Made by a program: the position numbers and the translations under genes. Shown in pieces: positions 3,376 through 56,877 of a stretch of 64,000 nt of DNA. The stretch is from positions 1 to 64,000 of the IMG/VR virus record IMGVR_UViG_3300044556_000025, one strand, 5' to 3'. Numbering within the stretch: position 1 is the stretch's first letter; each line of letters opens with the position of its first letter. Below the pieces are notes generated by a model. The model searched no databases, was not told where the DNA came from, and saw only the letters and a program-made list of their open reading frames with translations. This DNA is from a virus (Duplodnaviria; Caudoviricetes).

Positions 3376-4350
3376 ATGGAAGTAACTTCAAAACACCGAC
3401 AAATCGTATACTTCTATAACAAGATCCTTGGGCTATCGTATAAGTATCTTCATGACAAATATCAACTGTCCGAACGCGCGCTTAGAGATATAGCTGACGG
3501 AAAAGAGTTTCTGTCTTCTAGATATATCAGCACTCTTAAACTGCTTGATATCTTAGGGGTATCGATTCCCGATTTCTTGCCCCCAGAATCTAGAGCTTAT
3601 ATACTGAAGACACAGATTAGACCTAAAGTTAAGCGCTGGCACGAAATCAACAATGTTTCACTGAGGTCTATCTCTCGTATTACTCATGTTAACTTTCAGA
3701 CCATTAGGCATATTTATTACGAAGTGACAGAAAACGTAGAAGTTAAGACTATTCGGTTGATTTTGTTTGCCCCGAAAGATATGTCTGTGGAAAAGTCAAC
3801 GTTAACATATGACGCTTCTCAGTATGTCCAGGATATGGATAGGTGGATCCGCGACGGCATTCCTACAAAGACTATATGTTTCTATTGTGACGGTTTGACT
3901 CCCGCGCTTATAGGAAATCGGCACATGTACAGCCGGGTTTCGTATGATTCGTTTATGAGTTATATGCGAGGAAAAGATGAATTAGATAAACTTGCATACG
4001 CGATAGAGTTTAACACAGATCCGTCTAAGGCTCTAGAAGAAGCCGGAATCGCGAGGAGATATCGAACTTGTCAGGTATGCGGCAAGAAGTTTGTTGACAA
4101 CTCGAAGAGCGATACCAAATACTGCTCTAATAAGTGTTATAAAGAAGCTCAAAAAGCTATCCATCGAGAGTCTAGACGAAAGAAAGCTACTAAGTACGAA
4201 AAAGTTTGCCCAATGTGCGGAACTAAATTCGTTACTACATATGCACATAAAATTTATTGTTCTAAAGAGTGTTCGTCAAAACACAAGAACGAAGTTCGTC
4301 GTATTAAAAACAAACAGAAGCGCGAAGAAGGTGATGTTAGTGGACGTTAG
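3376..4350 (+). CDS. Multi-HTH protein with two C-terminal CxxC..YCS..C zinc fingers
   Basis: XRE-like N-terminal repeats; CQVCGKKF..YCSNKC and CPMCGTKF..YCSKEC. Confidence 0.7.
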   Translation: MEVTSKHRQIVYFYNKILGLSYKYLHDKYQLSERALRDIADGKEFLSSRYISTLKLLDILGVSIPDFLPPESRAYILKTQIRPKVKRWHEINNVSLRSISRITHVNFQTIRHIYYEVTENVEVKTIRLILFAPKDMSVEKSTLTYDASQYVQDMDRWIRDGIPTKTICFYCDGLTPALIGNRHMYSRVSYDSFMSYMRGKDELDKLAYAIEFNTDPSKALEEAGIARRYRTCQVCGKKFVDNSKSDTKYCSNKCYKEAQKAIHRESRRKKATKYEKVCPMCGTKFVTTYAHKIYCSKECSSKHKNEVRRIKNKQKREEGDVSGR

Positions 4351-5770: not shown

Positions 5771-7828
5771 GTGGGCCTTTTTAGTAATTCTCAAGTAGCT
5801 GCAATAAACGAAGTAGCTAAGAAGAGCAAAGCTATTAAGGCTCCTACAAACACTAGTCGTGTTTCATCTGTAAACGATGAGCTCATTCAGTCTTCTAAGG
5901 CTGTCGAAGAGTACTTCAAGGACAGCAAAGCGATTCTGATTACTACAAAGCCGCAGCTTCACGATTACGTGACTGCGGCTATTTCTGTAGGAATTGTTGG
6001 AATAGATACTGAGACAACGGGCCTCGACCGAAACAACGACTACATTGTAGGAGCTTCTCTTTACTACCCCGGCGGCGTAGAATGCTATATAGCAATGAAA
6101 CATAGAGTGCCCGTATTTGAGACACCATACAACAATCAGCTTTCTTACAAAGACGTAGCAGATGAACTATATCGGTTTGTAGAACACAAAACAAAGCTCG
6201 TATTTGCAAACGCCAACTACGACTTGTATATGATTTGGAAAGATTTACATGTAGATTTAGACTCTTGTTTCTACTACGACGTAATCTTAGCTTGGCGTTG
6301 TATGAAAGAGGACGAGCTACACAACGGTTTGAAGGAACTTTATAACAAGTATGTGCTGAAAGGCAAAGGGGATCCGAAGCGATTCTCTGACTTCTTCTCG
6401 CCTAAACTGTTCCCATACTCAAAGCCAGACGTCGCGAAGCTGTATGCCGCAAACGACGCTAAAATTACGTATGACTTGTACGTATGGCAATATCAATACT
6501 CTAACCCGAAGTCTGAGAAGTGTAAGAAAAATCATCTAGAAAACATTGCTCAGCTTATCTGGAATCTCGAGTTCCCTCTAGTACACGTTTGTCAGACAAT
6601 AGAGCGAACAGGCATGTACATAGATCAAGACATGGGCAAAGTGCTTCATAACAAGTACTCGGCACTCTACGAGCAAGAGTTTAACAAGCTAGGTTCGATG
6701 GTTGACGAAATTATAGAAAATAACCCCCAGCCAATGTCTTCAAAGAAGCCTCCGTTTACGTCTAGCAAAGACTTCAACCCTAAGTCAACGACACACGTTC
6801 AATATCTTCTTTATACGCTATTAGGGATTCCGAAGGTAGAAGGCAAGATGCCTACGGGCAAGGAGTTCTTAGACGAGGTAAATCTTCCTGTGGCGACGCA
6901 AATTGCAAAAGTTCGCAGTCTTGCAACGAACATCAATACGTTCGTTGACAAGTTGCCTGACGGAGTAGCTAAAGACGGCCGGATCCACGCTGACTTCAAG
7001 CAAATTGGCGCAGCGTGCGTCACAGGAGACACTGTAATTTGGACGTATGAAGGTCCAAAACCCATAGAAGACATCTACGAAGAGTCGTTTGGTCGAGAGC
7101 TCGATGAATACACATCGGGCGAATATAAAGACTGTGACGACCTTCAGCTATATAACAAATACGGTGATTTAGAAAAAGTATCAAGTATTGTCGGGTATTA
7201 CAATCAACCCGTAGTGACTGTTCATCTATCTAACGGATCGTCTATTACTGGTACTTATCACCACTTAGTTCTTTGTGTAAAGAGCGAAGACGAAGACATA
7301 TCTCAGTGTCTCGACAATTATACAGAGTTTAGGACGCTGAGTTCTATTAAAAAAGACGATATTATAGTGTGTATGTGTGACGATACAGATTTTTCGTCGG
7401 TAGGATACGAGTATGCATACGTAACTCATATAGACTTTGAAGATAACTCTAACGTATACGATGTCGTAATGCCTCAAACACATTCGTTCGTCGGAAACGG
7501 AATTGTCAATCATAATACTGGCAGGATGAGTTCAGCTGCGCCGAACCTACAGAACATACCTTCGAAACTTAATGATATTCGTCATCTCTTTCGCGGTGAC
7601 CCAAAACGCATCGAGGACGTATCCGGTGAAGTAGACGGCAACGAAGTCACATTCAAACTTCGTAAGTTTTCTAAAGTAGCGACAGGTTCAAACGAGCTTT
7701 CATTTGTAAATGATCTGACTATTGGGAGTTCTGTTATCATTGATAAAGACGGAATGTCTAGTTGTTTAAAAGTATCTGCAATAAAGCCTTGTTACGACCA
7801 AAAGTTTGTATATGTCACCTTAGAGTAA
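5771..7828 (+). CDS. polA: Family A DNA polymerase, N-terminal half (3'-5' exonuclease + thumb), with intein
   Basis: DTETTGL, NANYD, YAANDA, GRIH, TGRMSS..PNLQNIP. Confidence 0.92.
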   Translation: MGLFSNSQVAAINEVAKKSKAIKAPTNTSRVSSVNDELIQSSKAVEEYFKDSKAILITTKPQLHDYVTAAISVGIVGIDTETTGLDRNNDYIVGASLYYPGGVECYIAMKHRVPVFETPYNNQLSYKDVADELYRFVEHKTKLVFANANYDLYMIWKDLHVDLDSCFYYDVILAWRCMKEDELHNGLKELYNKYVLKGKGDPKRFSDFFSPKLFPYSKPDVAKLYAANDAKITYDLYVWQYQYSNPKSEKCKKNHLENIAQLIWNLEFPLVHVCQTIERTGMYIDQDMGKVLHNKYSALYEQEFNKLGSMVDEIIENNPQPMSSKKPPFTSSKDFNPKSTTHVQYLLYTLLGIPKVEGKMPTGKEFLDEVNLPVATQIAKVRSLATNINTFVDKLPDGVAKDGRIHADFKQIGAACVTGDTVIWTYEGPKPIEDIYEESFGRELDEYTSGEYKDCDDLQLYNKYGDLEKVSSIVGYYNQPVVTVHLSNGSSITGTYHHLVLCVKSEDEDISQCLDNYTEFRTLSSIKKDDIIVCMCDDTDFSSVGYEYAYVTHIDFEDNSNVYDVVMPQTHSFVGNGIVNHNTGRMSSAAPNLQNIPSKLNDIRHLFRGDPKRIEDVSGEVDGNEVTFKLRKFSKVATGSNELSFVNDLTIGSSVIIDKDGMSSCLKVSAIKPCYDQKFVYVTLE
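7016..7516 (+). mobile_element. Mini-intein (167 aa) in Pol-N
   Basis: C1 CVTGDT, block B GTYHH, VYD..HSF..NG.VNHN|T. Confidence 0.92.
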
Positions 7829-7994
7829 GGTTTGCATAAAGAGAGAAGACCTTCCAGACGAAACGATACGAAAATAAGAATTAAGTATTGACAATTGACA
7901 GAAAACTTCGTTATACATCGCATAAGCAATGAGTATATAGAAAACCGACGCATAGTCACATCGAAGGGCAGGGATTTAATGATTAGCGTTCTAG

Positions 7995-10040
7995 GTGATG
8001 TACATGTATAAGATACATACAGAGACGCCTGAATATGTCGTAATGTCTTCCGACTTTAGTCAGCAAGAGCCTAGGCTTCTTGCATTCTGCGCTCGAAGCC
8101 AAGAGCTTATTGAAGCCTTTAAACAAGGTAGAGACATTTATTCGACAATTGCGGCTATCGCATATAACATGCCTTACGAAAAATGCCTCGAATTCAACCC
8201 AGACACAGGGGAGTATCAACCAGACGGCAAAGCTCGCAGAAGCGAAGCTAAGACAATTGTACTTGGCATTGCTTACGGTCGTTCTGTCCCGTCAATTGGC
8301 GAGCAGCTTTTTAGTCACAACGATGAAATGTCAGACGAAGACAAAACCAAAGAAGCTCAGCGCATTTACGATTCTGTAATGAAAGCTTTCCCAGAACTCG
8401 AAGCGTTGATGAAGAGCGCTCAGGCATACGCACGCAAGCACGGGTACACAGAGACAATCCTCGGTCGTCGGCGCCATCTCCCAGATATGACGCTCCCTGA
8501 GTTTGAGTTTAAGCCTCTGCCGGGATACGTTAACCCTGACATTGACCCGCTAGATTTGTCAAGTCTTGAAAACGCAGAGACAGGAATCCCTGAGTCTAGA
8601 ATTAAACAGCTAGAGCAAGAGTTTCATAAGTATAAGTATTTCGGTCAGATTGCTAGGCGTACCAAAGAGCTTTACGAGAAAGAACACATTAGAGTTATCA
8701 ACAATAGACCGAAGATAAACGATGCTCGTCGGCAGTGCGTAAACTGCGTAGATGACGAAACAGAGATACTGACATTAAACGGATGGAAGACATTTGACAA
8801 AGTTTCAAAAGGCGACGAAATAATTTCTTACAATTTAGGCAAGAACTGTCTAGAGCGTGACGTTGTGAACGAAGTTATCAGTGAAACCTCTGATGACGGC
8901 TTTGAGTTATATCATATGTACAACAAGAACTTCAATTCTATGTCCACGCTAAACCACCGTTGGGTGACGAGAACTGACGACGTAAACGATAGAAAGTATC
9001 GAATTTACGATACTTCGCATCTTGTGAGCGTAAAGAACCCCCGCTATCAAATTCTTCGAATTGCCGATTATGAATGCGAAGATAATTCACAGTTTTTTGG
9101 GAAAGTTGAATTTGTATGCGAGTCTATTTTCAAAAACAGTATTTCGTATAGAGACATATTGTCTTTGAGTGGCAGCTTTGCCAAAAAGTGCTATAGCTGG
9201 ATTTTCGATAATAAGTCTGCCCGCGGAGCTGTTGTTGTGAAAGACAAAGAGGTAGCAAGCAAGCTACAAACTTTGGGCATTTTAGCAGGAAAAGTTTGCA
9301 ACGTAAACGAAACAGTTTCTGTCGACGGAACTTCTTCTTATAGAGTTTCATGGTCTGAAATTAACAAGCCGTATAACGATGTTGCTAGGATAAAGTCTCT
9401 TAAGAAAGAAAAAGTTTCTAGAAACCACGTATGGTGCGTTTCGACAAACAACGGAACATGGGTTGCTCGTCGTTCGGGGACGTGCTTCATAACTGGAAAC
9501 TCTATTATTCAGGGTTCGGCAGCTGACTTTACTAAAATGGCATTACTAAAGCTCTGTCGAGATCCTAGATGGGAAGCGTGCGGCGGCGAGATATTAACTG
9601 TAGTACACGATGAAATCATTGCTCAAGCCCCTGTCGATTTCGCAGAAGAAGCTGGCAAGGTACTGCAGTCTGACATGGAAGGCGCCGGCTCTTTTCTGCC
9701 GTTCCCGATTAACTGCGATGTTACAACGACATACCGCTGGTACGGTCTAGAAATTCCTTGTAAGTTCGATGTACCTACAGACTTAAGCTTAAACTCTGAA
9801 AACGATCTTTCTTGGGTACAGTGGCATCTAGTCGAGATGGGGTTCGAGCTCCCTAATTTCAAAGACAAAAACGGAAACGACCCTATCGGCGATGCGGCTC
9901 ACGGAGTTTCAGGACAATTGTCAGATGAAATGATTAAAGCTATTGAAACGTACTGCGATCGTTATCATATCAGTAAGGACAGTTTCATAGATGACATTAG
10001 GCAACGTGTTGAAACTGGAATAGTAGAAAGGGCAAGTTAA
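7995..10040 (+). CDS. polA: Family A DNA polymerase, C-terminal half (motifs A/B/C), with intein
   Basis: DFSQQEPR, RSEAKTIVLGIAYG, IQGSAAD, VHDE. Confidence 0.92.
   Translation: MMYMYKIHTETPEYVVMSSDFSQQEPRLLAFCARSQELIEAFKQGRDIYSTIAAIAYNMPYEKCLEFNPDTGEYQPDGKARRSEAKTIVLGIAYGRSVPSIGEQLFSHNDEMSDEDKTKEAQRIYDSVMKAFPELEALMKSAQAYARKHGYTETILGRRRHLPDMTLPEFEFKPLPGYVNPDIDPLDLSSLENAETGIPESRIKQLEQEFHKYKYFGQIARRTKELYEKEHIRVINNRPKINDARRQCVNCVDDETEILTLNGWKTFDKVSKGDEIISYNLGKNCLERDVVNEVISETSDDGFELYHMYNKNFNSMSTLNHRWVTRTDDVNDRKYRIYDTSHLVSVKNPRYQILRIADYECEDNSQFFGKVEFVCESIFKNSISYRDILSLSGSFAKKCYSWIFDNKSARGAVVVKDKEVASKLQTLGILAGKVCNVNETVSVDGTSSYRVSWSEINKPYNDVARIKSLKKEKVSRNHVWCVSTNNGTWVARRSGTCFITGNSIIQGSAADFTKMALLKLCRDPRWEACGGEILTVVHDEIIAQAPVDFAEEAGKVLQSDMEGAGSFLPFPINCDVTTTYRWYGLEIPCKFDVPTDLSLNSENDLSWVQWHLVEMGFELPNFKDKNGNDPIGDAAHGVSGQLSDEMIKAIETYCDRYHISKDSFIDDIRQRVETGIVERAS
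8745..9500 (+). mobile_element. Intein (252 aa) in Pol-C with a degenerate endonuclease remnant
   Basis: CVDDETEILT, TLNHRW, VWCVST..ITGN|S. Confidence 0.9.
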
Positions 10041-11143
10041 TGAAGTTTACGCTAAATACTAAGCCTCTCGTAGCCGGACTAGATCTAGGTATTATCAACT
10101 CTAACATCACTAAGTTTTATCAGAAGAGCTGCATTGTCGAGCTCAACATCGAAGATGGTAACCTTCGAGTAAATACAGAAGTTTCTGCTATCAAGTCCGA
10201 GCTTGTGTTTAAGGGCAGCGTTTCCGGAGAAGATGAATACTCTCACACGTTCGTTGACAGCCTTCTTTTCAAGAATCTGATTAACTCCGTAGACAGTGAC
10301 GTAATTGACATTGAGATTAAAGAGGGCGGACTTACCGTATACTCTGGCAAGTCTAAGTTTAATCTGCCTCAAGTCGTTTCAGAATCTGACATGTCTCTCG
10401 CTCGTCCCGTAGAGTACACAGAAGCTTCTGAAGGGACTATCGAGGTCAATAAGAGCGACTGGAAGTTCGTACAAGACTACCAGATGTACGCAATCGCAAT
10501 GTCATTTATCCATCCCGTATATACTATGGCATGGATGGGCAATAGTGGGGACGTAATTGTCGGCGACTTCGACAATTCTATCTTCACGCATTCTAACAAG
10601 TCGCAGATGCCGTCTACGTGCCTTGTAACAGACACAATTGTCAACCTCCTTAACAACCTGCCCGAAGGATCTAAGCTCGTAAATCTCGGTCGTACTTACG
10701 AGCTCGCAGTAGTCCTCGACCCTTATAGCTATGTATGTGAGTTCTCGCCGAAGTACGAAGAGGACGAAGGCGTAGGTACGTACAACTCTGACATCATTCT
10801 GTCTTTATTTAATCACACAGACAGCGTCGAAGTTAATACCTCAAAGCTGTCTAAGTACCTTGCTCAGGCTGAGCTGTTTACAAAGACGAATGATGATACT
10901 ATTACGCTATCTCTTGACAATAACGTCCTTTCTCTCAAAAACGATAGTGTAAATTGCAACGTTGACGTAACTTCTAGCCTTAGTCCTTTTACGGTAGACT
11001 TCAAGATTCGATTCTTGAAGGACGCTCTCTCGCACCTAGACAGCGAAGATATTCATCTGTGCCCTCTAATTCAGGAAGATCAAGCCACGGGGATAATCCT
11101 CTGGACCGAAAACATGGAAACAGTTCTAGCCGGAATCGAGTAA
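10040..11143 (+). CDS. dnaN: Beta sliding clamp-like protein
   Basis: 367 aa; MKFTLN start; F..RFLKDAL near the C-terminus; located between Pol and DnaX. Confidence 0.75.
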   Translation: MKFTLNTKPLVAGLDLGIINSNITKFYQKSCIVELNIEDGNLRVNTEVSAIKSELVFKGSVSGEDEYSHTFVDSLLFKNLINSVDSDVIDIEIKEGGLTVYSGKSKFNLPQVVSESDMSLARPVEYTEASEGTIEVNKSDWKFVQDYQMYAIAMSFIHPVYTMAWMGNSGDVIVGDFDNSIFTHSNKSQMPSTCLVTDTIVNLLNNLPEGSKLVNLGRTYELAVVLDPYSYVCEFSPKYEEDEGVGTYNSDIILSLFNHTDSVEVNTSKLSKYLAQAELFTKTNDDTITLSLDNNVLSLKNDSVNCNVDVTSSLSPFTVDFKIRFLKDALSHLDSEDIHLCPLIQEDQATGIILWTENMETVLAGIE

Positions 11144-11147
11144 AACA

Positions 11148-11924
11148 GTGGGATTTATACGAATTTCTGACACCGTAAATGGAAAGTCAAGTAATTCGCC
11201 CGTAGCCCAGAACTTCAAGTCTATGTACGACAAGATAGTATTCGACAAGTATCAAAAAGAGGAGCAACACGTTTCTTCAAGGACGTTTGCTCCTTCTTCT
11301 TTTAGGTGCGATCGGCTGTCTTTCTTTAGGCTTAGAGGAGTCCCTGCGGACGAAAACGTAAACGTAGACAGCGTATTAAGCTTCTCTGCAGTTCTCGGGA
11401 CTGCAATGCACCGAGAGATTCAGTCAAATCTGAAGGAAGCTATCGGAGACAATTGGATAAACGTTCCCGATTTTCTAAAAACACATGACGTAGGTCACGA
11501 CTATGAAATTGGGAATAGCTCAGAGTTTGAAACACAGCTTGAATTCAAAAACCCTCCTGTAAGGTTTTCTTGTGACGGTCTTATAAAGATAGGCGAGACT
11601 GTATATCTACTTGAGATAAAGTCGTCTAACCCGCAGCCGTTTTCTTCTTTATACAAGCCTAAGCCAAATCACATAGATCAAGTTAAGTGCTATTGTGCGT
11701 TAATGAACATTGACAGGGCGTTGGTACTTTATCAAGATAGAATGTACGGGCAAACAAAGTGCTTCGAAGTAGACGTTCCAGACAGCGAGAAACAAGCTGT
11801 GTTTGACCGTATGGATAGAGTTATGGACTTCGTTAATAAATGTGTAGCCCCGCCAAGGCTCCCCAAAGGCGACTACTGGTGTACATATTGCAAATACAAG
11901 AAGCGTTGTGATAGCTGGGGTTAA
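11148..11924 (+). CDS. Cas4-like PD-(D/E)XK exonuclease
   Basis: C..R, GTAMH, DG..EIKS, Q..Y, C-terminal CTYCKYKKRC Fe-S ligands. Confidence 0.85.
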   Translation: MGFIRISDTVNGKSSNSPVAQNFKSMYDKIVFDKYQKEEQHVSSRTFAPSSFRCDRLSFFRLRGVPADENVNVDSVLSFSAVLGTAMHREIQSNLKEAIGDNWINVPDFLKTHDVGHDYEIGNSSEFETQLEFKNPPVRFSCDGLIKIGETVYLLEIKSSNPQPFSSLYKPKPNHIDQVKCYCALMNIDRALVLYQDRMYGQTKCFEVDVPDSEKQAVFDRMDRVMDFVNKCVAPPRLPKGDYWCTYCKYKKRCDSWG

Positions 11925-11926
11925 AC

Positions 11927-13831
11927 ATGACTAATCTCGCTCTTAAGTATCGTCCTAAGTCGTTCGAAGACGTAGTAGAACAAAGCGACGTAGTAAAGAT
12001 TCTAGAGTCTATGTGCGAGCAGCCGGAGCTTCACAATCGCAATTTCTTACTTGTCGGACCTCGAGGGTGCGGAAAAGCTAACCCTATGTATACAAATATC
12101 CTTACGCCTAGCGGGTTCAAAAAGATGGGTGATATTGAGATAGGCGATAAGGTATTCACGCATTCAGGAAGAGTAGCTATCGTTTCCGGTGTTTACCCTC
12201 AGGGAGTAAGACCTATATATAGAATCAGCTTAGCTGACAAAACGTATATTGACGTGTCAGATGAACATCTCAATATGATAACTGTATCTGATCGCACGTC
12301 TAGTAAGACTATTTGTGAAGACAAAATTATAAAGACCATTAATCTTTTTGAAGCCTATAAAAATAGTGATGCGTTCAAAGATTTCACGATATGCGTAAAA
12401 ACTCCTAGAGTTGACTTCGACAAATGTGACGTATTGTGTCCCCCGTATACGTTTGGAACGCTTATTAGGAACGGTGGTTTCGACGATACAGGGATACCTG
12501 AAGAGTATCTGTTTAATACGTTCTACTATCGAATCGATCTACTCAAAGCCCTACTGTATACTGACTACGTAGACAACAAGAGCTTAGCTAGTAGCAATAT
12601 TTTGAAAGGCAAAATGACACTGTTTTGCAATGGTGAAGCTTTGTCTTCTAGTATATCTTTTCTTGTTAGATCTTTAGGGATTGTAGACACTGTATATGAC
12701 TATTCACACTACATGAGTAACTTCGATATTGACGCAGACATCATCCGAGGAGGTCAGTTTGAGTTTGCGCATGTTCTTCATATTCCAAAAGATATTGTGA
12801 GCCTCATATTCGAGCCTGACAAAATTCTAGACGAAGACAATTACTCGCTGTTGCGGGAGATAACTTCTGTAGAGTACATCGGTGAAGAAAATTGTCAATG
12901 TATTATGGTTGACGATCCAGATCATTCATACATTTGTGATGAAGGGTTCATACCTACTCATAACACAACACTCGGTCGAATCATGGCCAACAAGCTGAAT
13001 AGCGGCTTAGGGTCCCCTATAGAGCTCGATGCTGCATCCAATAGCGGTGTTGATACTGTTCGTAATATAATATCTCAGGCTCGAGAGTACCCTATTGGGA
13101 CGAAGTACAAAGTTTTTATTTGTGACGAATGTCACGCATTTAGTCAAGCCGCCTGGTCCTCTTTGCTAAAGACTTTGGAAGAACAGCCAGCACGTAGCGT
13201 ATTTATCCTTCTAACAACTAACCCTGAGAAGATACCGCAAACTATACTCTCTCGAGTTCAAAAGTTTCGTCTGTCGACTATCAGCTTAGACGGAATTGTG
13301 AGCAGACTTAAGTATGTTATAGAGCAAGAAAACAAAGAAGGTCGCAACATAACATACGAAGACGAAGCGCTTACATATATTGCAAAGTTGGCTAAAGGAG
13401 GTATGCGTGATAGCTTAACGCTTCTGGACAAAGCTCTTGTGTATAGCAACGACATTACGTCTTCTAACATCAAAGTGTCTTTAGGAATACCTGATTATCA
13501 AGACTACTTCGACCTTCTAAACGCATATGCCAAGAAAGACAATTTGAAGACAATCGAAGTAGTTCAGAAGGTTTATAACTCTGGAACAAACTTCGTAAAA
13601 TGGTTCGAAGAGTTCCAGTCGTTTGTGATAAACATCGTTAAGTACGTTTATCTACAAGACATTAGTGAAACTATGATTCCGCCATATTACAAAGACAAGA
13701 TTTCTCATTATGGACCGAAACACGTTCAACTTTGTCTTCATCTTTCGCAAGTTCTAGTCGAGTTGATATCTAAAATTTCTAGGACAGAGTACATGGAAGA
13801 AGTAGCTATCTCGTACCTTATGAGGAAGTAA
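11927..13831 (+). CDS. dnaX: Clamp loader gamma/tau subunit with intein
   Basis: LALKYRPKSFEDVV, GPRGCGK|TT, ELDAAS, DECH, LLKTLEE, TILSR, GGMRD. Confidence 0.93.
   Translation: MTNLALKYRPKSFEDVVEQSDVVKILESMCEQPELHNRNFLLVGPRGCGKANPMYTNILTPSGFKKMGDIEIGDKVFTHSGRVAIVSGVYPQGVRPIYRISLADKTYIDVSDEHLNMITVSDRTSSKTICEDKIIKTINLFEAYKNSDAFKDFTICVKTPRVDFDKCDVLCPPYTFGTLIRNGGFDDTGIPEEYLFNTFYYRIDLLKALLYTDYVDNKSLASSNILKGKMTLFCNGEALSSSISFLVRSLGIVDTVYDYSHYMSNFDIDADIIRGGQFEFAHVLHIPKDIVSLIFEPDKILDEDNYSLLREITSVEYIGEENCQCIMVDDPDHSYICDEGFIPTHNTTLGRIMANKLNSGLGSPIELDAASNSGVDTVRNIISQAREYPIGTKYKVFICDECHAFSQAAWSSLLKTLEEQPARSVFILLTTNPEKIPQTILSRVQKFRLSTISLDGIVSRLKYVIEQENKEGRNITYEDEALTYIAKLAKGGMRDSLTLLDKALVYSNDITSSNIKVSLGIPDYQDYFDLLNAYAKKDNLKTIEVVQKVYNSGTNFVKWFEEFQSFVINIVKYVYLQDISETMIPPYYKDKISHYGPKHVQLCLHLSQVLVELISKISRTEYMEEVAISYLMRK
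12077..12964 (+). mobile_element. Ala1 (class 3-like) intein, 296 aa, in the Walker A motif
   Basis: K|ANPMYTNILTPSG, DEHLN, CQCIMVD, PTHN|T. Confidence 0.88.
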
Positions 13832-33398: not shown

Positions 33399-35126
33399 AT
33401 GATTCGAGAATATATGAAAGAGCGCAAGTGCGTCATTTGCGGTAAAGCGTTTGTTCCTAAGAATCCGAAACAAAAGATGTGCGGCGACGCACATTATCAT
33501 CCATGCCCTGTGTGCGGAAAGCCCGTATTGACAAAGGTGCCTAGCGACATTAATAAGTGTTGTTCTAAGAAGTGCGGGCAAGTTCTTGCTCAAAAGAACA
33601 GAGAAAAAACATACAAGTCTAAGTATGATTCGGATTCTCTTAGTGAAATACAGTCGTCTAAAGTTTACATGAAAACGTGTAAGTGGTGTGGAAAGAAGTT
33701 TAAAACGTCGCATCCTCGCCAAGATTATTGTGGTAACGATTATTACAAATGTCCAGTCTGCGGTAAGTTGACAAAAATAAATGAAGATAGGTCTAATATT
33801 GGAAAAGCGTGCTCGAAAGAATGCAAGCGGAAATTAACTCAAGCTACAAACGAGTCTAAATACGGTAGTAAAGAGATATTCGAATCTAATTATTTTAAAG
33901 AGAAACGCGCTTCTACGTCTATTAAGAAATACGGAGTGGACATACCCTCTAAAAGTGACAACGTTAAGTCGAAGTACAAAGAGACAATGAACTCTATATA
34001 TGGTGTCACGTACCCTTTACAAAACAAAGATATCAAGAAGAAAGTAGAAGAAACAAACAGAGATAAATACGGTTCTGCGTGGCCTATGTCTAACGACGAC
34101 GTAAAAGCAAAAGCTAAGAGTACGTTTGACGAGAAGTACGACGGCATAGGGTTTGGGTCTCGAGCTATCAGAAAAAAGATAAAGTCTTCTCTAATAGAAG
34201 AATATGGTGTTGACAGCCCTATGAAGTCTGATGAGATTAAAGAAAAAGTTATCAAAACTAACTTACAGCGCTATAACTCACAATACTACAATAGTTCAGA
34301 TTATAGATATATGAACTTAGGTATGACGGACAGTCAGATAGGGCTATGGAAATCTTTTAAAGAAGATCCATATCGCTTCATACTTTCATTGCCCGAAGTA
34401 GACAGGCACGTATATAAGCTGTCGCAGATATTTGGAATTTCAGAAACTCCAATACAATGTATTCTTCACGAAAATAACTTATACGAATATATGAACAAGT
34501 CACATTCGTATATAGAAGACGAAGTTTATGATTTTGTAAGGTCGGCTTTGCCACAAAATGTGAAAATAGTTAGAAACGATAGAACTGCTATTAGTCCGCA
34601 CGAACTAGACATATACGTACCAGATTTTAAATTTGCAATTGAAGTTGACCCTACAGCTACACATAACTCTTCGATAAATATATTCGACAAAGAGATAATG
34701 TCACCTTCATATCACAAAAACAAGTCTTTAGCTTGCAAAGACGCTGGAATATCCTTGTTTCATTTGTTCGACTACAACTGGGAAAATAAACGAAGTATCA
34801 TAGAATCAATGATACAGAATCGTCTAGGTGTAAACAATACGAAGTTGTATGCTCGAAATTTGCGAGTTGCGGGGGTTTCGTACAAAGAAAGCTCTAAGTT
34901 CCTACGTGAAAATCATCTTTTGGGCGATTCACAGTCTAGAATTCGTTTAGGTCTATATAATGGAGCAGAACTTGTATCGCTGATGACGTTTGGTATGATA
35001 CGTCCCTCACAAGGACGTCAATCTGACGAAGCAATCGAGCTTCGAAGATTTTGTAGTAAACTTGGGTGTGTGATAGACGGCGGAGCGTCTAAGCTTTTTA
35101 AACACGCTTTATATTTCGAGCCGTAA
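33399..35126 (+). CDS. Hef-like homing endonuclease (Zn ribbons + KYG repeats + PD-(D/E)XK), C-terminally truncated at an IS
   Basis: ELDIY..AIEVD..TH, YAR..FLRENHL.G, ELRRFCS..GGASKLFK. Confidence 0.8.
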   Translation: MIREYMKERKCVICGKAFVPKNPKQKMCGDAHYHPCPVCGKPVLTKVPSDINKCCSKKCGQVLAQKNREKTYKSKYDSDSLSEIQSSKVYMKTCKWCGKKFKTSHPRQDYCGNDYYKCPVCGKLTKINEDRSNIGKACSKECKRKLTQATNESKYGSKEIFESNYFKEKRASTSIKKYGVDIPSKSDNVKSKYKETMNSIYGVTYPLQNKDIKKKVEETNRDKYGSAWPMSNDDVKAKAKSTFDEKYDGIGFGSRAIRKKIKSSLIEEYGVDSPMKSDEIKEKVIKTNLQRYNSQYYNSSDYRYMNLGMTDSQIGLWKSFKEDPYRFILSLPEVDRHVYKLSQIFGISETPIQCILHENNLYEYMNKSHSYIEDEVYDFVRSALPQNVKIVRNDRTAISPHELDIYVPDFKFAIEVDPTATHNSSINIFDKEIMSPSYHKNKSLACKDAGISLFHLFDYNWENKRSIIESMIQNRLGVNNTKLYARNLRVAGVSYKESSKFLRENHLLGDSQSRIRLGLYNGAELVSLMTFGMIRPSQGRQSDEAIELRRFCSKLGCVIDGGASKLFKHALYFEP

Positions 35127-37959: not shown

Positions 37960-39699
37960 TTATCTTCGATATTCGAAAACTTTCTGGCCACAGTCATATA
38001 CAGGAAGCCAGCCGTTTTCTACCATAAGTAGCTCGTTAGACGCGCTTTTACCATAATTCGTATTAAATAGCTGATCATAACCTCTAGCCCTAAGAAGGTT
38101 AGAGGTTATTTTTTGTGAACCTTTAGACCATATCTCCTGGGGCAGCGTATCTTTTAGCTGCGTCATACCTATTTCTGTATATACACTGCCTCTAAACTTC
38201 GATCTATCGCAATAAGAAATAACATTGTTAAACTCGAAGTAATTTGTAACCCATTTGAAGAGCTTAGATGCCCCACCTACAACTTCTATTCTTGACTTAG
38301 CACAAAATCGCAGGAGCTCTAAATCGTAATTTTTGTTATAGCGAGGCTTTCCGAATGTCATAACTTCTACGAGCTCCCCTTCGTGAACTAAACCGACACA
38401 AAACACTTGACCGCGGCACGATCCCTGAAGGTGGTTGTCATTCATAAATTTTCGAGCAACTTCGGGCTTGATTATGTATTTGTCACAATTCCTTGCATAA
38501 ATTACTTTCTTTTTAGCGAGCATACTTACGATTTTGTCTACGTTGTCCCAGTCAAATATATGAATGCACCTAAATCCATTGTCTTCGGCTAGTTTAGTCT
38601 TCTCGAGATGATAATTTTTGTCCAGACCGCTAGGGTTCCAGTGATTACCGATAGTATTATGCGTATATGTCGGGTCAACTTCGATAAGGGTGTTAGAATT
38701 AACTATTTTAATGTCATATTGTTTCGTGCCTATTGCATATTCAAATTCAGTATGAATTCCACTCGATTCAAGTTTGTCAGATACTTTCTTTTTGATAGCA
38801 GATATCCGAAAATGTGACCCATTTAAATACTCTTTTGATTCGACGTAATATGGGGCACCATATCTTTCAGTCATAGTAGCCTCAAGCTTTTTTCTAAACT
38901 CGGGGACATTCATAGCCCTCTTTACGCCGTATCTCCTCACAAACGTATGAGTTATTTTGTCAATAAATTCGCTAGACTTTGAAGTGTTGTCAACGCCATA
39001 GTTGCGAATTAGAGTATTTTTGGCCTTTTCGAACGAGTCTTTGTATGCCGTTACCCTATTTTGTTTAGATCTTTCAGTTATTTCGGGAACTTTCATCGGG
39101 TTAGGCACGCCATATTTCTTAATGTTAGTTTCTTCAGTTTTATGCTTTACAATTGGAGATTGTGTAGCATACGGGACGCCAAATTTGTTCATATTTGTTT
39201 TACGCTTCTTGTTAATAGACGCTTTTGCGGCACAGCTTCTAGAACATCCATACGAAGGAGAAGTACTATTATGAACATATTTCTTACCACATATGGGGCA
39301 TACTAAGTAATGATCCTCGTTGCATATTGTTTGGTTCGCATGTGTAGGCGTAAACAATTTATGGCATATGATGCACTCTTTTTGAGGCAAAGCTATTTTT
39401 TGCTTCTTAGTTCTACAGTTGTCACAAATCTTCTGAGATCCAGACTTTGGCAAGAACTTGTGTCCGCACACTTCGCAAACTCTAGGCTTAAACCTCGACT
39501 GACGAAGTTTCTTCGAACACTCTTTAGAACAACATTTCGGAGGTCTCGTAAAGTCTCGGTCTGTCTTCTTAACAAGTTTCCCACAGACAGGGCAAGGCAA
39601 ATAGTGATCTCTGTCACAATATTCTTTCTGCGGTGAGTTTGTATCGAACGGCTTTCCGCAGCACTTGCAAATTTTGTGATACTTGAATGTCTTGCCCAT
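37960..39699 (-). CDS. Hef-like homing endonuclease (Zn ribbons + KYG repeats + PD-(D/E)XK), full length
   Basis: YDI..LIEVD..TH, NHLQG, GGASKLF, ISYCD, YDCG. Confidence 0.82.
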   Translation of the reverse strand: MGKTFKYHKICKCCGKPFDTNSPQKEYCDRDHYLPCPVCGKLVKKTDRDFTRPPKCCSKECSKKLRQSRFKPRVCEVCGHKFLPKSGSQKICDNCRTKKQKIALPQKECIICHKLFTPTHANQTICNEDHYLVCPICGKKYVHNSTSPSYGCSRSCAAKASINKKRKTNMNKFGVPYATQSPIVKHKTEETNIKKYGVPNPMKVPEITERSKQNRVTAYKDSFEKAKNTLIRNYGVDNTSKSSEFIDKITHTFVRRYGVKRAMNVPEFRKKLEATMTERYGAPYYVESKEYLNGSHFRISAIKKKVSDKLESSGIHTEFEYAIGTKQYDIKIVNSNTLIEVDPTYTHNTIGNHWNPSGLDKNYHLEKTKLAEDNGFRCIHIFDWDNVDKIVSMLAKKKVIYARNCDKYIIKPEVARKFMNDNHLQGSCRGQVFCVGLVHEGELVEVMTFGKPRYNKNYDLELLRFCAKSRIEVVGGASKLFKWVTNYFEFNNVISYCDRSKFRGSVYTEIGMTQLKDTLPQEIWSKGSQKITSNLLRARGYDQLFNTNYGKSASNELLMVENGWLPVYDCGQKVFEYRR

Positions 39700-48387: not shown

Positions 48388-48547
48388 CTAATTAAACAGC
48401 GGAAGCAATACGTTGAAAGCACTATACGCTGGCAATGACATGAAAATCGGAAATCTCAATTTAACAATTAGCTTTGACACCACACCACCAAAACGATTAT
48501 AATCATAACCAGAAACAAACAACGACGAAACAACGGAATTACAGATA

Positions 48548-56515: not shown

Positions 56516-56550
56516 AGGTATTGACATTTACCTCTGATTCGCTATATAAT
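56516..56550 (+). promoter_or_regulatory. Early promoter
   Basis: AGGTA-TTGACA-18-TATAAT. Confidence 0.8.
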
Positions 56551-56844: not shown

Positions 56845-56877
56845 AGGTATTGACATTCTCTGTCGAGTATCTATAAT
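56845..56877 (+). promoter_or_regulatory. Early promoter
   Basis: AGGTA-TTGACA-16-TATAAT. Confidence 0.8.

Follow-up and report, generated by a model that had tools for sequence, protein, structure and literature searches.

In phages, an enzyme is sometimes encoded by two adjacent genes. In Aeromonas phage Aeh1, NrdA is split into NrdA-a and NrdA-b by a free-standing endonuclease gene, mobE (Crona et al. 2011, PMC3045599); C- and N-terminal tails that are absent from the unsplit homologues are required for function, neither RNA nor protein splicing takes place, and Crona et al. speculated that the tails might be degenerate intein remnants (PMC3045599). In the "fractured genes", such as those of gp41-1, NrdJ-1 and IMPDH-1, the two halves of a split intein flank a free-standing homing endonuclease gene (Dassa et al. 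2009, PMC2677866). Fractured genes are mainly from phages, a later loss of the endonuclease was predicted, and the way in which a gene can be cut without a dead intermediate was raised as an open question for them and for split DnaE (PMC2677866). Among polymerases, split gp43 genes of family B are mentioned for T4-like phages (Petrov et al. 2006, as cited in PMC2677866), and split polymerase genes were noted in OM43 phages (PMC10580990) and in phage MIJ3 (PMC6892783), whose polymerase was reported with a canonical split intein (PMC6892783). Here we describe a family A DNA polymerase that is encoded as two genes, Pol-N and Pol-C, in the virus record IMGVR_UViG_3300044556_000025 (Duplodnaviria; Caudoviricetes) of IMG/VR. 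Positions 1 to 64,000 of this record are called the window below; they are part of a 92.6-kb phage record, the completeness of which is estimated to be 61%. The explanation that we favor, with a slight balance of probability on its side, is a two-chain polymerase that was cut inside a dead, Hint-like insertion domain and whose halves are rejoined non-covalently.

Pol-N (5771–7828, + strand) was recognized in the list of open reading frames (ORFs) and by the Pfam families DNA_pol_A_exo1, DNA_pol_A and Intein_splicing. It encodes 685 amino acids (aa), which comprise, from the N- to the C-terminus, a 3'-5' exonuclease, the N-terminal part of the polymerase, intein 1, the palm strand IRHLFRGDP and a tail. 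IRHLFR is located at aa 603–608 (nucleotides, nt, 7577–7594), and IRHLFRGDP (7577–7603, +), the last conserved extein stretch, corresponds to DIRHMFRATP/GYVML in uninterrupted relatives (a slash marks a junction here and below). It is the first strand of the palm hairpin ahead of motif A, and the insertion site follows its final Pro. Beyond the conserved NLQNIPSKLNDIRHLFR, Pol-N adds 77 residues (GDP and 74 more) and then ends with TAA at 7826–7828. The tail (7604–7828, +; 74 aa and the stop codon) is all-beta and corresponds to the N-terminal ~85% of the insertion domain described below. Pol-C (7995–10040, +; Pfam DNA_pol_A, E-value = 3.6e-39) consists of a leader, motif A, the fingers with motif B, intein 2 and motif C. 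Its ORF begins with GTG 7995 and reads (M)MYMYKIHTE-TPEYVVMSSDFSQQE; the likelier start is ATG 8004, which lies 6 nt after the AGGTG core of a Shine-Dalgarno-like sequence, TAGGTGAT (7992–7999, +), read from the letters of the window. The 9-aa leader MYKIHTETP (8004–8030, +) is followed by the motif A strand EYVVMSSDFSQQE (8031–8069, +), which contains the catalytic Asp, forms the second strand of the palm hairpin, matches Pfam DNA_pol_A and is conserved in all relatives. Between the Pol-N stop and GTG 7995 there are 166 nt (7829–7994) in which every frame is closed, and a three-frame translation of the intergenic gap up to ATG 8004 (7829–8003, no strand assigned) gave stops in all frames; 205 nt separate the stop codon from motif A. 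So the overrun of Pol-N past IRHLFR, and the start of Pol-C 166 nt downstream with a short leader ahead of motif A, are both as the original prediction for this locus had described them.

Exonuclease and polymerase domains, as well as motifs A, B and C, are located across the two chains as in a family A DNA polymerase, and GIDTETTG, DFSQQE, RRSEAKT and VHDE are intact in the two halves. The split polymerase is located in an intact replication operon, beside a clamp-like gene. In T4-like phages, OM43 phages and MIJ3, the replicative polymerase is likewise encoded by two adjacent genes, sometimes with an endonuclease gene between them, but the polymerase family and the break point differ from those of the window, and no conserved folded docking domain across the break has been described there.

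Based on one scan of metagenome contigs, which contributed 80 of them, 104 loci with the motif DIRHxFR were compared, and three allelic states were found at the break site. In 38 of the 104 loci there is no insertion (FRATP/GYVML uninterrupted), in 15 an insertion of 80–97 aa lies in frame at exactly the window's break site, and in 48 the gene is split; the contig ends at the site in the remaining three. The uninterrupted relatives (L002, L005, L008, L010, L012, L015 and more) read DIRHMFRATPGYVMLSSDFSQQEPKL, and the insertion site is therefore at the beta-hairpin tip ahead of motif A. In L001, L011, L013 and L022 the break follows FR(A)TP, as in the window, and the tails are 68–79 aa long. 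Protein P0002 is 60% identical to Pol-N and has the same end and a homologous tail, and P0015 is likewise split with a homologous tail. Homologous tails were found in 39 distinct split sequences, and the corresponding in-frame segment in 14 distinct fused sequences. Because the identical Pol-N protein is present on six contigs, and because 48 of the 104 loci are split at the same site with a homologous tail, the split is neither a chance event nor an error of assembly but a genuine feature of the gene; the fused homologues that the original prediction had asked for also exist, both with and without the domain. In a phage collection, neither a megablast search with the whole gene nor a tblastn search with the tail gave a match, and a search with Pol-C found only relatives of at most 41% identity, annotated as a single polymerase gene.

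The gene could be a decaying pseudogene in a phage whose DNA is replicated by another polymerase, and the heavy invasion of the gene by mobile elements would fit such decay; since the record is only about 61% complete, another polymerase could lie outside it. We give this very little credence. The exonuclease and polymerase motifs are all intact in both halves, the split recurs in 39 distinct sequences with tail and flanking polymerase under purifying selection, the translation signals of Pol-C recur across lineages, and the surrounding replication operon, with its clamp-like neighbor, is intact.

In an alignment of 52 distinct sequences, both split and fused, every split tail ends right after the strand that is equivalent to LITFKIV of the fused locus L071. 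In the fused forms, this strand is followed by a linker of ~8 aa and a last strand, SYQIKHETP in L071, which closes the in-frame domain and leads into AYVLMSSDYS. The window's leader, MYKIHTETP/EYV, aligns with this last strand and matches it at five of eight positions. Tail and leader thus belong to a single domain, in the last linker of which the gene is cut; as aligned, the two pieces are homologous to one continuous domain, which is unsplit in 15 relatives. Single-chain models were made with AlphaFold2, the natural fused domain of L071 serving as the model of the whole. The window's tail alone was predicted to be all-beta with a predicted local distance difference test (pLDDT) score of 88.7 and a predicted template modeling score of 0.76, and the whole L071 domain with its hairpin flanks had a pLDDT of 86.5, with 93 in the last strand (block E93–98) and 79 in the linker. 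The first segment of the tail (KRIEDV in the window) is a coil with a pLDDT of 67 where the last strand is missing, whereas its counterpart is a strand with a pLDDT of 93 where the last strand is present. A pairing of the first tail segment with the last strand would account for this, but the comparison can only suggest it, since the two models differ in sequence. The arrangement that strand complementation, as proposed for the two halves, would require is therefore present in these relatives, where the leader equivalent is a confidently modeled last strand.

The tail also evolves as a protein. The ratios of nonsynonymous to synonymous substitutions (dN/dS; Nei-Gojobori) in the non-overlapping tail were 0.05–0.29 in five pairs with unsaturated dS, and those of the adjacent polymerase sequence were 0.07–0.08 in comparable pairs, which indicates that purifying selection acts on the tail as a protein, though less strictly than on the enzyme core. 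Together with the model, these ratios support the tail as a real, folded beta domain. Pol-C, in turn, has translation signals of its own. Among 37 distinct split start regions, nearly all have a Shine-Dalgarno-like purine run (AGGAGG, GGAGGT, AAGGAG or AGGTG) that is followed within a few bases by an ATG, TTG or GTG at matching positions, most clearly in the class with overlapping ORFs, and these starts open a leader of ~8–12 aa of the form x-phi-x-phi-x-(T/S/H)-P. In the overlapping forms, the ribosome-binding site of Pol-C, GAAAGGAGG, doubles as the codons for EDGKEV, a turn of the tail, and the tail closes with ~10 residues (...SRLCHVVFGL) that are read from the DNA of motif A (TPAYVMLSSDY) in another frame. 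This dual coding was seen in L013 (10538–10575), L026–L029, L035, L039, L042, L045–47, L061–62, L069, L073, L075–76 and L090; in L001, the stop codon of the tail and the start codon of Pol-C share an A (TAATG).

As to transcription, the original prediction had given Pol-C its own TTGACA and TCGTTA signals. These words are present, TTGACA at 7888 and 7895 and TCGTTA at 7908, and a pattern match gives a putative promoter, TTGACA-N18-TATACA, at 7888–7917 (+); a stricter general sigma-70 scan, however, called no + strand promoter at 7888–7917. The pattern TTGACA-N16-19-TAYAMW has five matches in the window, all on the + strand, versus 0.4 expected by chance. The five sites (2494–2524, 7888–7917, 48474–48503, 56521–56550 and 56850–56877, +) are probably the host-type promoters of the phage.

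The two ORFs might instead be joined covalently, by removal of a self-splicing intron of about 7604–8030, by a programmed frameshift or ribosomal bypass, or by a non-canonical protein trans-splicing. Such a joining seems very improbable to us. Clear intron-like interruptions with HNH and GIY-YIG genes do exist elsewhere in the genes of relatives, the overlap of the ORFs in many relatives would permit a +1 shift, and a Thr follows the domain in most members. The tail, however, is a folded and selected protein, translated in frame with the polymerase in 15 relatives, and this coding evidence (the dN/dS of the tail and the in-frame fused forms) speaks strongly against a group I intron. Group I introns have a conserved catalytic RNA core, with a U that ends the 5' exon and a G that ends the intron, and such an insert need not be coding in frame; in L013, the 5' exon would end with A, not U, if the intron ended with G. 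Rfam gave no match in 7400–8200 of the window, at the gathering threshold or at E-value ≤ 10, and none in L001 or L013, but this is weak evidence because Rfam also misses the evident interruptions of L001. The predicted RNA fold of 7800–8030 is unremarkable in comparison with shuffled sequences (z = -1.0). For the window, a fusion by frameshift or bypass was rejected because all frames of its gap are closed; elsewhere it is made unnecessary by the Shine-Dalgarno-like run and start codon that recur ahead of the leader, almost without exception, among the distinct split forms. Trans-splicing is opposed by the lack of a conserved nucleophile at the position of Cys1, the lack of an Asn before T-P, and a leader of just 8–12 aa.

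The residues of the junctions bear on this last point. At the position equivalent to Cys1 of an intein there is a K in the window and a T or L in L071, and no nucleophile is conserved. A Cys found ~7 aa after TP in just 26 of the 52 members (Ser in the window) lies ~10 residues upstream of the Cys1-equivalent position and so is not the structural Cys1. At the other end, the fused forms have the His in nine of 14 cases and a following Thr in 11 of 13, and the residue between the two is I, R, E, T, F, S, Y or Q, never Asn. Similarly, the residue before T-P in the sequences examined is I, R, E, K, M or Q, never Asn (KIHTE/TP in the window). The C-terminal piece, that is, the leader, is a mere 8–12 aa long, no TxxH block was seen, and blocks B and F are not recognizable in the insertion domain. 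A canonical class 1 intein starts with Cys, Ser or Thr right behind the N-extein and ends with Asn (rarely Gln or Asp), which has a His before it and a Cys, Ser or Thr after it; a complete Hint splicing domain has at least ~125 aa, with blocks A, B, F and G. Therefore, with no Cys1 equivalent, no terminal Asn and a length below that of the aligned mini-inteins, the domain cannot splice; neither the first-residue nucleophile, the C-terminal Asn nor the complete Hint domain of a canonical class 1 intein was found. Here the original prediction, which had found no nucleophile in the tail and no HN-C/S/T junction in Pol-C, was right. It follows that the in-frame forms must retain the domain in the mature enzyme and that the split forms must act as two chains.

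Among known systems, the fractured genes are the nearest precedent in architecture, but the situation of the window is different. The gene layout is the same as for a naturally split intein: an N-half with the N-terminal part of a Hint-like module, an endonuclease gene (present in the gap of L011, L022, L033, L060 and L084), and the C-terminal part of the module with the C-half, adjacent and on one strand. The inteins of fractured genes, however, keep Cys or Ser1, block B, the terminal Asn and the +1 nucleophile, and splice in trans, whereas the window's module has none of these, is ~85 aa long in total and is cut 8–12 aa from its end. From mini-inteins and other Hint domains, too, the window's domain differs in that it would stay in the mature protein and lacks conserved catalytic residues.

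The original prediction had seen in the tail an echo of an intein N1 block and had proposed an intein relic. The N1-like motif is present, and in structural alignments residue 1 of inteins falls close to the K of TFKL, which is K20 in the 76-aa model of the tail (D1 = nt 7598); the missing Cys is thereby placed at most 1–2 residues from where it had been guessed. A profile of four tails, searched against 1.84 billion proteins, gave 15 matches at E-value ≤ 1e-3: six members of the family and nine further proteins, four of which are Hint proteins (P0006, P0012, P0014 and P0017; E-value = 3e-8 to 5e-4). In P0014 and P0017, the match covers the N-terminal portion of the Hint module. When members were scanned singly with Pfam, Hint_2 was matched by 13 of the 52, Hint by five and Vint by two, all below the gathering threshold (best, Hint_2, E-value = 0.0016), and other families by three or fewer each. 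In a profile search of the PDB, the gp41-1 intein was the best natural protein (E-value = 0.048). With Foldseek, the first match of the tail model was the BIL2 Hint domain (E-value = 0.05; 0.05–0.2 for both models). VIA-align aligned the L071 domain end to end with 11–12 Hint entries (Z = 5.0–7.2), including MchDnaB-1 (7.2), PI-SceI domain I (6.9), Prp8 (6.7) and gp41-1 (6.6), with a root mean square deviation (rmsd) of 2.1–2.6 Å over 60–64 residues in these four. Model residues 26–28 fall on intein residue 1 and residues 97–99 on the intein C-terminus, and the tail-alone model gave similar results. In these alignments, phi-x-H-x/T-P at the end of the domain is the counterpart of block G (H-N/+1), so that the leader keeps a block-G-like trace. 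In short, the domain resembles the Hint proteins MchDnaB-1, gp41-1, Prp8, PI-SceI domain I and BIL2 and the Hedgehog autoprocessing domain in that they are among its best structural matches, in its N-terminal motif pattern and in the His two residues ahead of the Thr at the C-terminal junction. Descent from the Hint fold seems fairly probable on this basis, and the domain weakly resembles a stripped-down, catalytically dead module of the intein type.

The alternative is that the same two-subunit, non-covalent enzyme is held together by an ordinary small beta-barrel without Hint ancestry, its Hint likeness coming from a common pattern (V.L.DG...V.DL.VGD.V) and a common strand arrangement. We consider this unlikely, but a number of facts speak for it. 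The top VIA-align matches of the whole domain include non-Hint barrels that tie with the inteins or edge ahead of them with more residues aligned (BesA, Z = 7.3 over 73; Spr0693, Z = 7.2 over 75), phage tail-tip proteins match the tail alone, SpaA, DUF5666 and galactose-binding-like beta domains were also matched in the profile search, and a designed OB fold and a designed propeller rank above the inteins in the PDB profile search. The tails, compared by hhalign with inteins of these same genes, gave only 2–12% probability. On the other hand, the Hint-clan families are by far the most recurrent in Pfam (13, five and two of 52 versus at most three), four of the nine non-family profile matches are Hint proteins, and the intein alignments span residue 1 to the C-terminus at a lower rmsd than those of the barrels. 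Moreover, the domain ends like block G with a +1 Thr, its host gene contains several real inteins, and there is a homing endonuclease gene at the cut. The intein relic of the original prediction is thus weakly supported by a likeness that recurs across methods but stays below threshold in each: Hint_2 in 13 of 52, a VIA-align Z of at most 7.2 and a Foldseek E-value of 0.05.

The gap between tail and leader is filled by an ORF of 518–664 aa in five lineages (L011/L055; L022/L025/L044/L066; L033; L060; L084). These ORFs are 40–52% identical between lineages and form one family; that of L011 matches PHROG 3339, "homing endonuclease" (E-value = 2e-104), together with Pfam DUF7487 and a Mom-like domain. 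A 93-aa Cys-rich ORF, without a Pfam or PHROG match, precedes the gap endonuclease in L022 (11554–11835), L025, L044 and L066. Other gaps are shorter (579 nt in L034, 907 nt in L041 and 248 nt in L056) and many forms overlap; a weak remnant of the endonuclease is present in the gap of L034 (tblastn E-value = 0.007–0.4). In the window phage itself, this family is abundant but missing from the polymerase gap: there are three full-length paralogues of the PHROG 3339 type elsewhere, with open frames of 540–587 aa, at 33399–35126 (+) and 37960–39699 (-) of the window and at C1:80715–82292 of its own genome; there is also a short zinc-finger-like match at 4057–4284 of the window. In a tree built on the N-terminal 412 aa, the fused L010, which has no insert, is sister to the split L013 (support 100/100, branch lengths 0.04–0.05), and the split state requires at least two changes. 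Between these two, L013 10333–10540 versus L010 6461 is a clean indel of 208 nt that comprises the whole cassette, with the direct repeat ACTCC on both sides; ACTCC encodes the TP that flanks the insertion on both sides in almost all members. Taken together, the tree and the indel indicate repeated gains or losses of the cassette, which is what one would expect of an element associated with homing.

The locus is thus built like the genes in pieces of the Aeh1 nrdA type, with adjacent co-oriented ORFs, own starts, an endonuclease in some genomes and unsplit homologues: as in Aeh1, the nearest functional precedent, an essential replication-related enzyme is cut into adjacent genes at the site of an endonuclease insertion, and each half has its own start. 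The window differs from Aeh1 in that its tail and leader together make up one folded domain, found whole in relatives, that this domain has a measurable, if weak, Hint similarity, and that the endonuclease belongs to another family (PHROG 3339, with DUF7487 and a Mom-like domain) and would already have been lost from the gap. The Aeh1 tails, which arose through the mobE insertion, have been shown to be essential for activity, while the tail and leader of the window are known from sequence and models.

The mechanism that we favor can be put as follows. A clade of family A polymerases of gut and rumen phages has an 80–97-aa insertion domain at the tip of the palm beta-hairpin before motif A (FRATP/domain/(G/A)YVMLSSD(F/Y)S). 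In the lineage of the window, this domain is cut in the linker between its penultimate and last strands, most likely by a free-standing endonuclease gene of the PHROG 3339 type that was inserted there; the later loss of this gene would have left the 166 nt, along with a promoter-like sequence and the ribosome-binding site and start codon of Pol-C. The polymerase would then be made as two polypeptides, each ORF with its own start, and after the two inteins have spliced out, the halves would assemble non-covalently. The leader strand (YKIHTE) may add to the sheet of the tail beside the tail's first segment, and this docking would extend and close the palm hairpin (IRHLFRG against EYVVMSS) and bring the motif A aspartate into position; the native palm interface that the two halves share would strengthen the binding.

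Several facts weigh against this explanation. All Hint signals stay below the curated or conventional thresholds: Foldseek found no match in the PDB at E-value ≤ 0.001 with either the tail or the L071 model, the 2–12% of hhalign refer to the N-parts of the inteins, a VIA-align Z of 7 falls in the tool's "common arrangement" range, and the tail alone ties there with the phage tail-tip proteins. The domain, at 80–97 aa versus 127–143 residues, is ~40 aa shorter than the aligned mini-inteins and has an N-terminal extension of ~20 aa without an intein counterpart. The contact between tail and leader is deduced only from the fused homologues and pLDDT. The window's gap has no remnant of an endonuclease, as judged by tblastn of the gap endonucleases against the gaps. 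Finally, many relatives lack the domain, which means that it is dispensable for polymerase activity as such, and the large native palm interface alone might be enough to hold the halves together.

Two inteins accompany the split. Intein 1 (7016–7516, +) is a mini-intein of 167 aa (CVTGD...VNHN/T) directly before TGRMSS; its Pfam match to Intein_splicing (E-value = 1.5e-8; 35.0 bits) is marginally under the gathering cut-off of 35.8 bits, and it is missing from L002, L011 and L013, in which GA(D/N)TGR is uninterrupted. Intein 2 (8745–9500, +), of 252 aa (CVDDETE...ITGN/S), lies before IIQGSAAD and has homologues at the same site in L001, L009, L011 and L021 but none in L002. With their canonical C...HN/T and C...GN/S junctions, both should splice out normally. 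The relatives have larger inteins with endonucleases (402 aa in P0002; 331–341 aa in L009 and L021) or none. The polymerase genes of relatives are also broken at no fewer than four additional sites: after TGRMSSxxP, inside DFS/QQEP, after ..LLG and after NS.IQG. These interruptions (L001 1690–2588, 2930–4057 and 5790–6110; L006/L020 ~10365–10750; L007/L018 ~10570–11700; L003/L004 ~11055–12138) in some cases carry HNH or GIY-YIG genes and are group I intron-like, yet Rfam is silent on L001 at E-value ≤ 1. The GIY-YIG gene of L001 does not lie in the gap between tail and Pol-C but in a separate interruption 12 codons downstream (DYS/QQEPRL).

In a literature search, no description of degenerate or non-splicing intein relics as docking modules was found. 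It is possible, although we rate it less likely than not, that the dead mini-Hint family of 80–97 aa is a natural, non-splicing module for split-protein complementation, in the last linker of which a dedicated endonuclease inserts. As an orthogonal tag for protein complementation, one could use a module of ~85 aa that is split into 75 and 10 and binds but does not splice. For annotation, family A polymerase genes of gut and rumen phages that are labeled "truncated" or "partial" would be two-subunit enzymes rather than pseudogenes. The comparison would also support the suggestion of Crona et al. that assembly tails of fragmented phage enzymes may be degenerate inteins (PMC3045599). One clade of polymerases displays the stages side by side, namely, no insert, an in-frame insert, a split with or without the endonuclease, and overlapping ORFs, and what is cut is a self-contained folded insertion, the pieces of which can plausibly come together again. 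If this is true, the mobile element would disrupt an essential polymerase gene just where the fragments are already equipped with a "repair kit".

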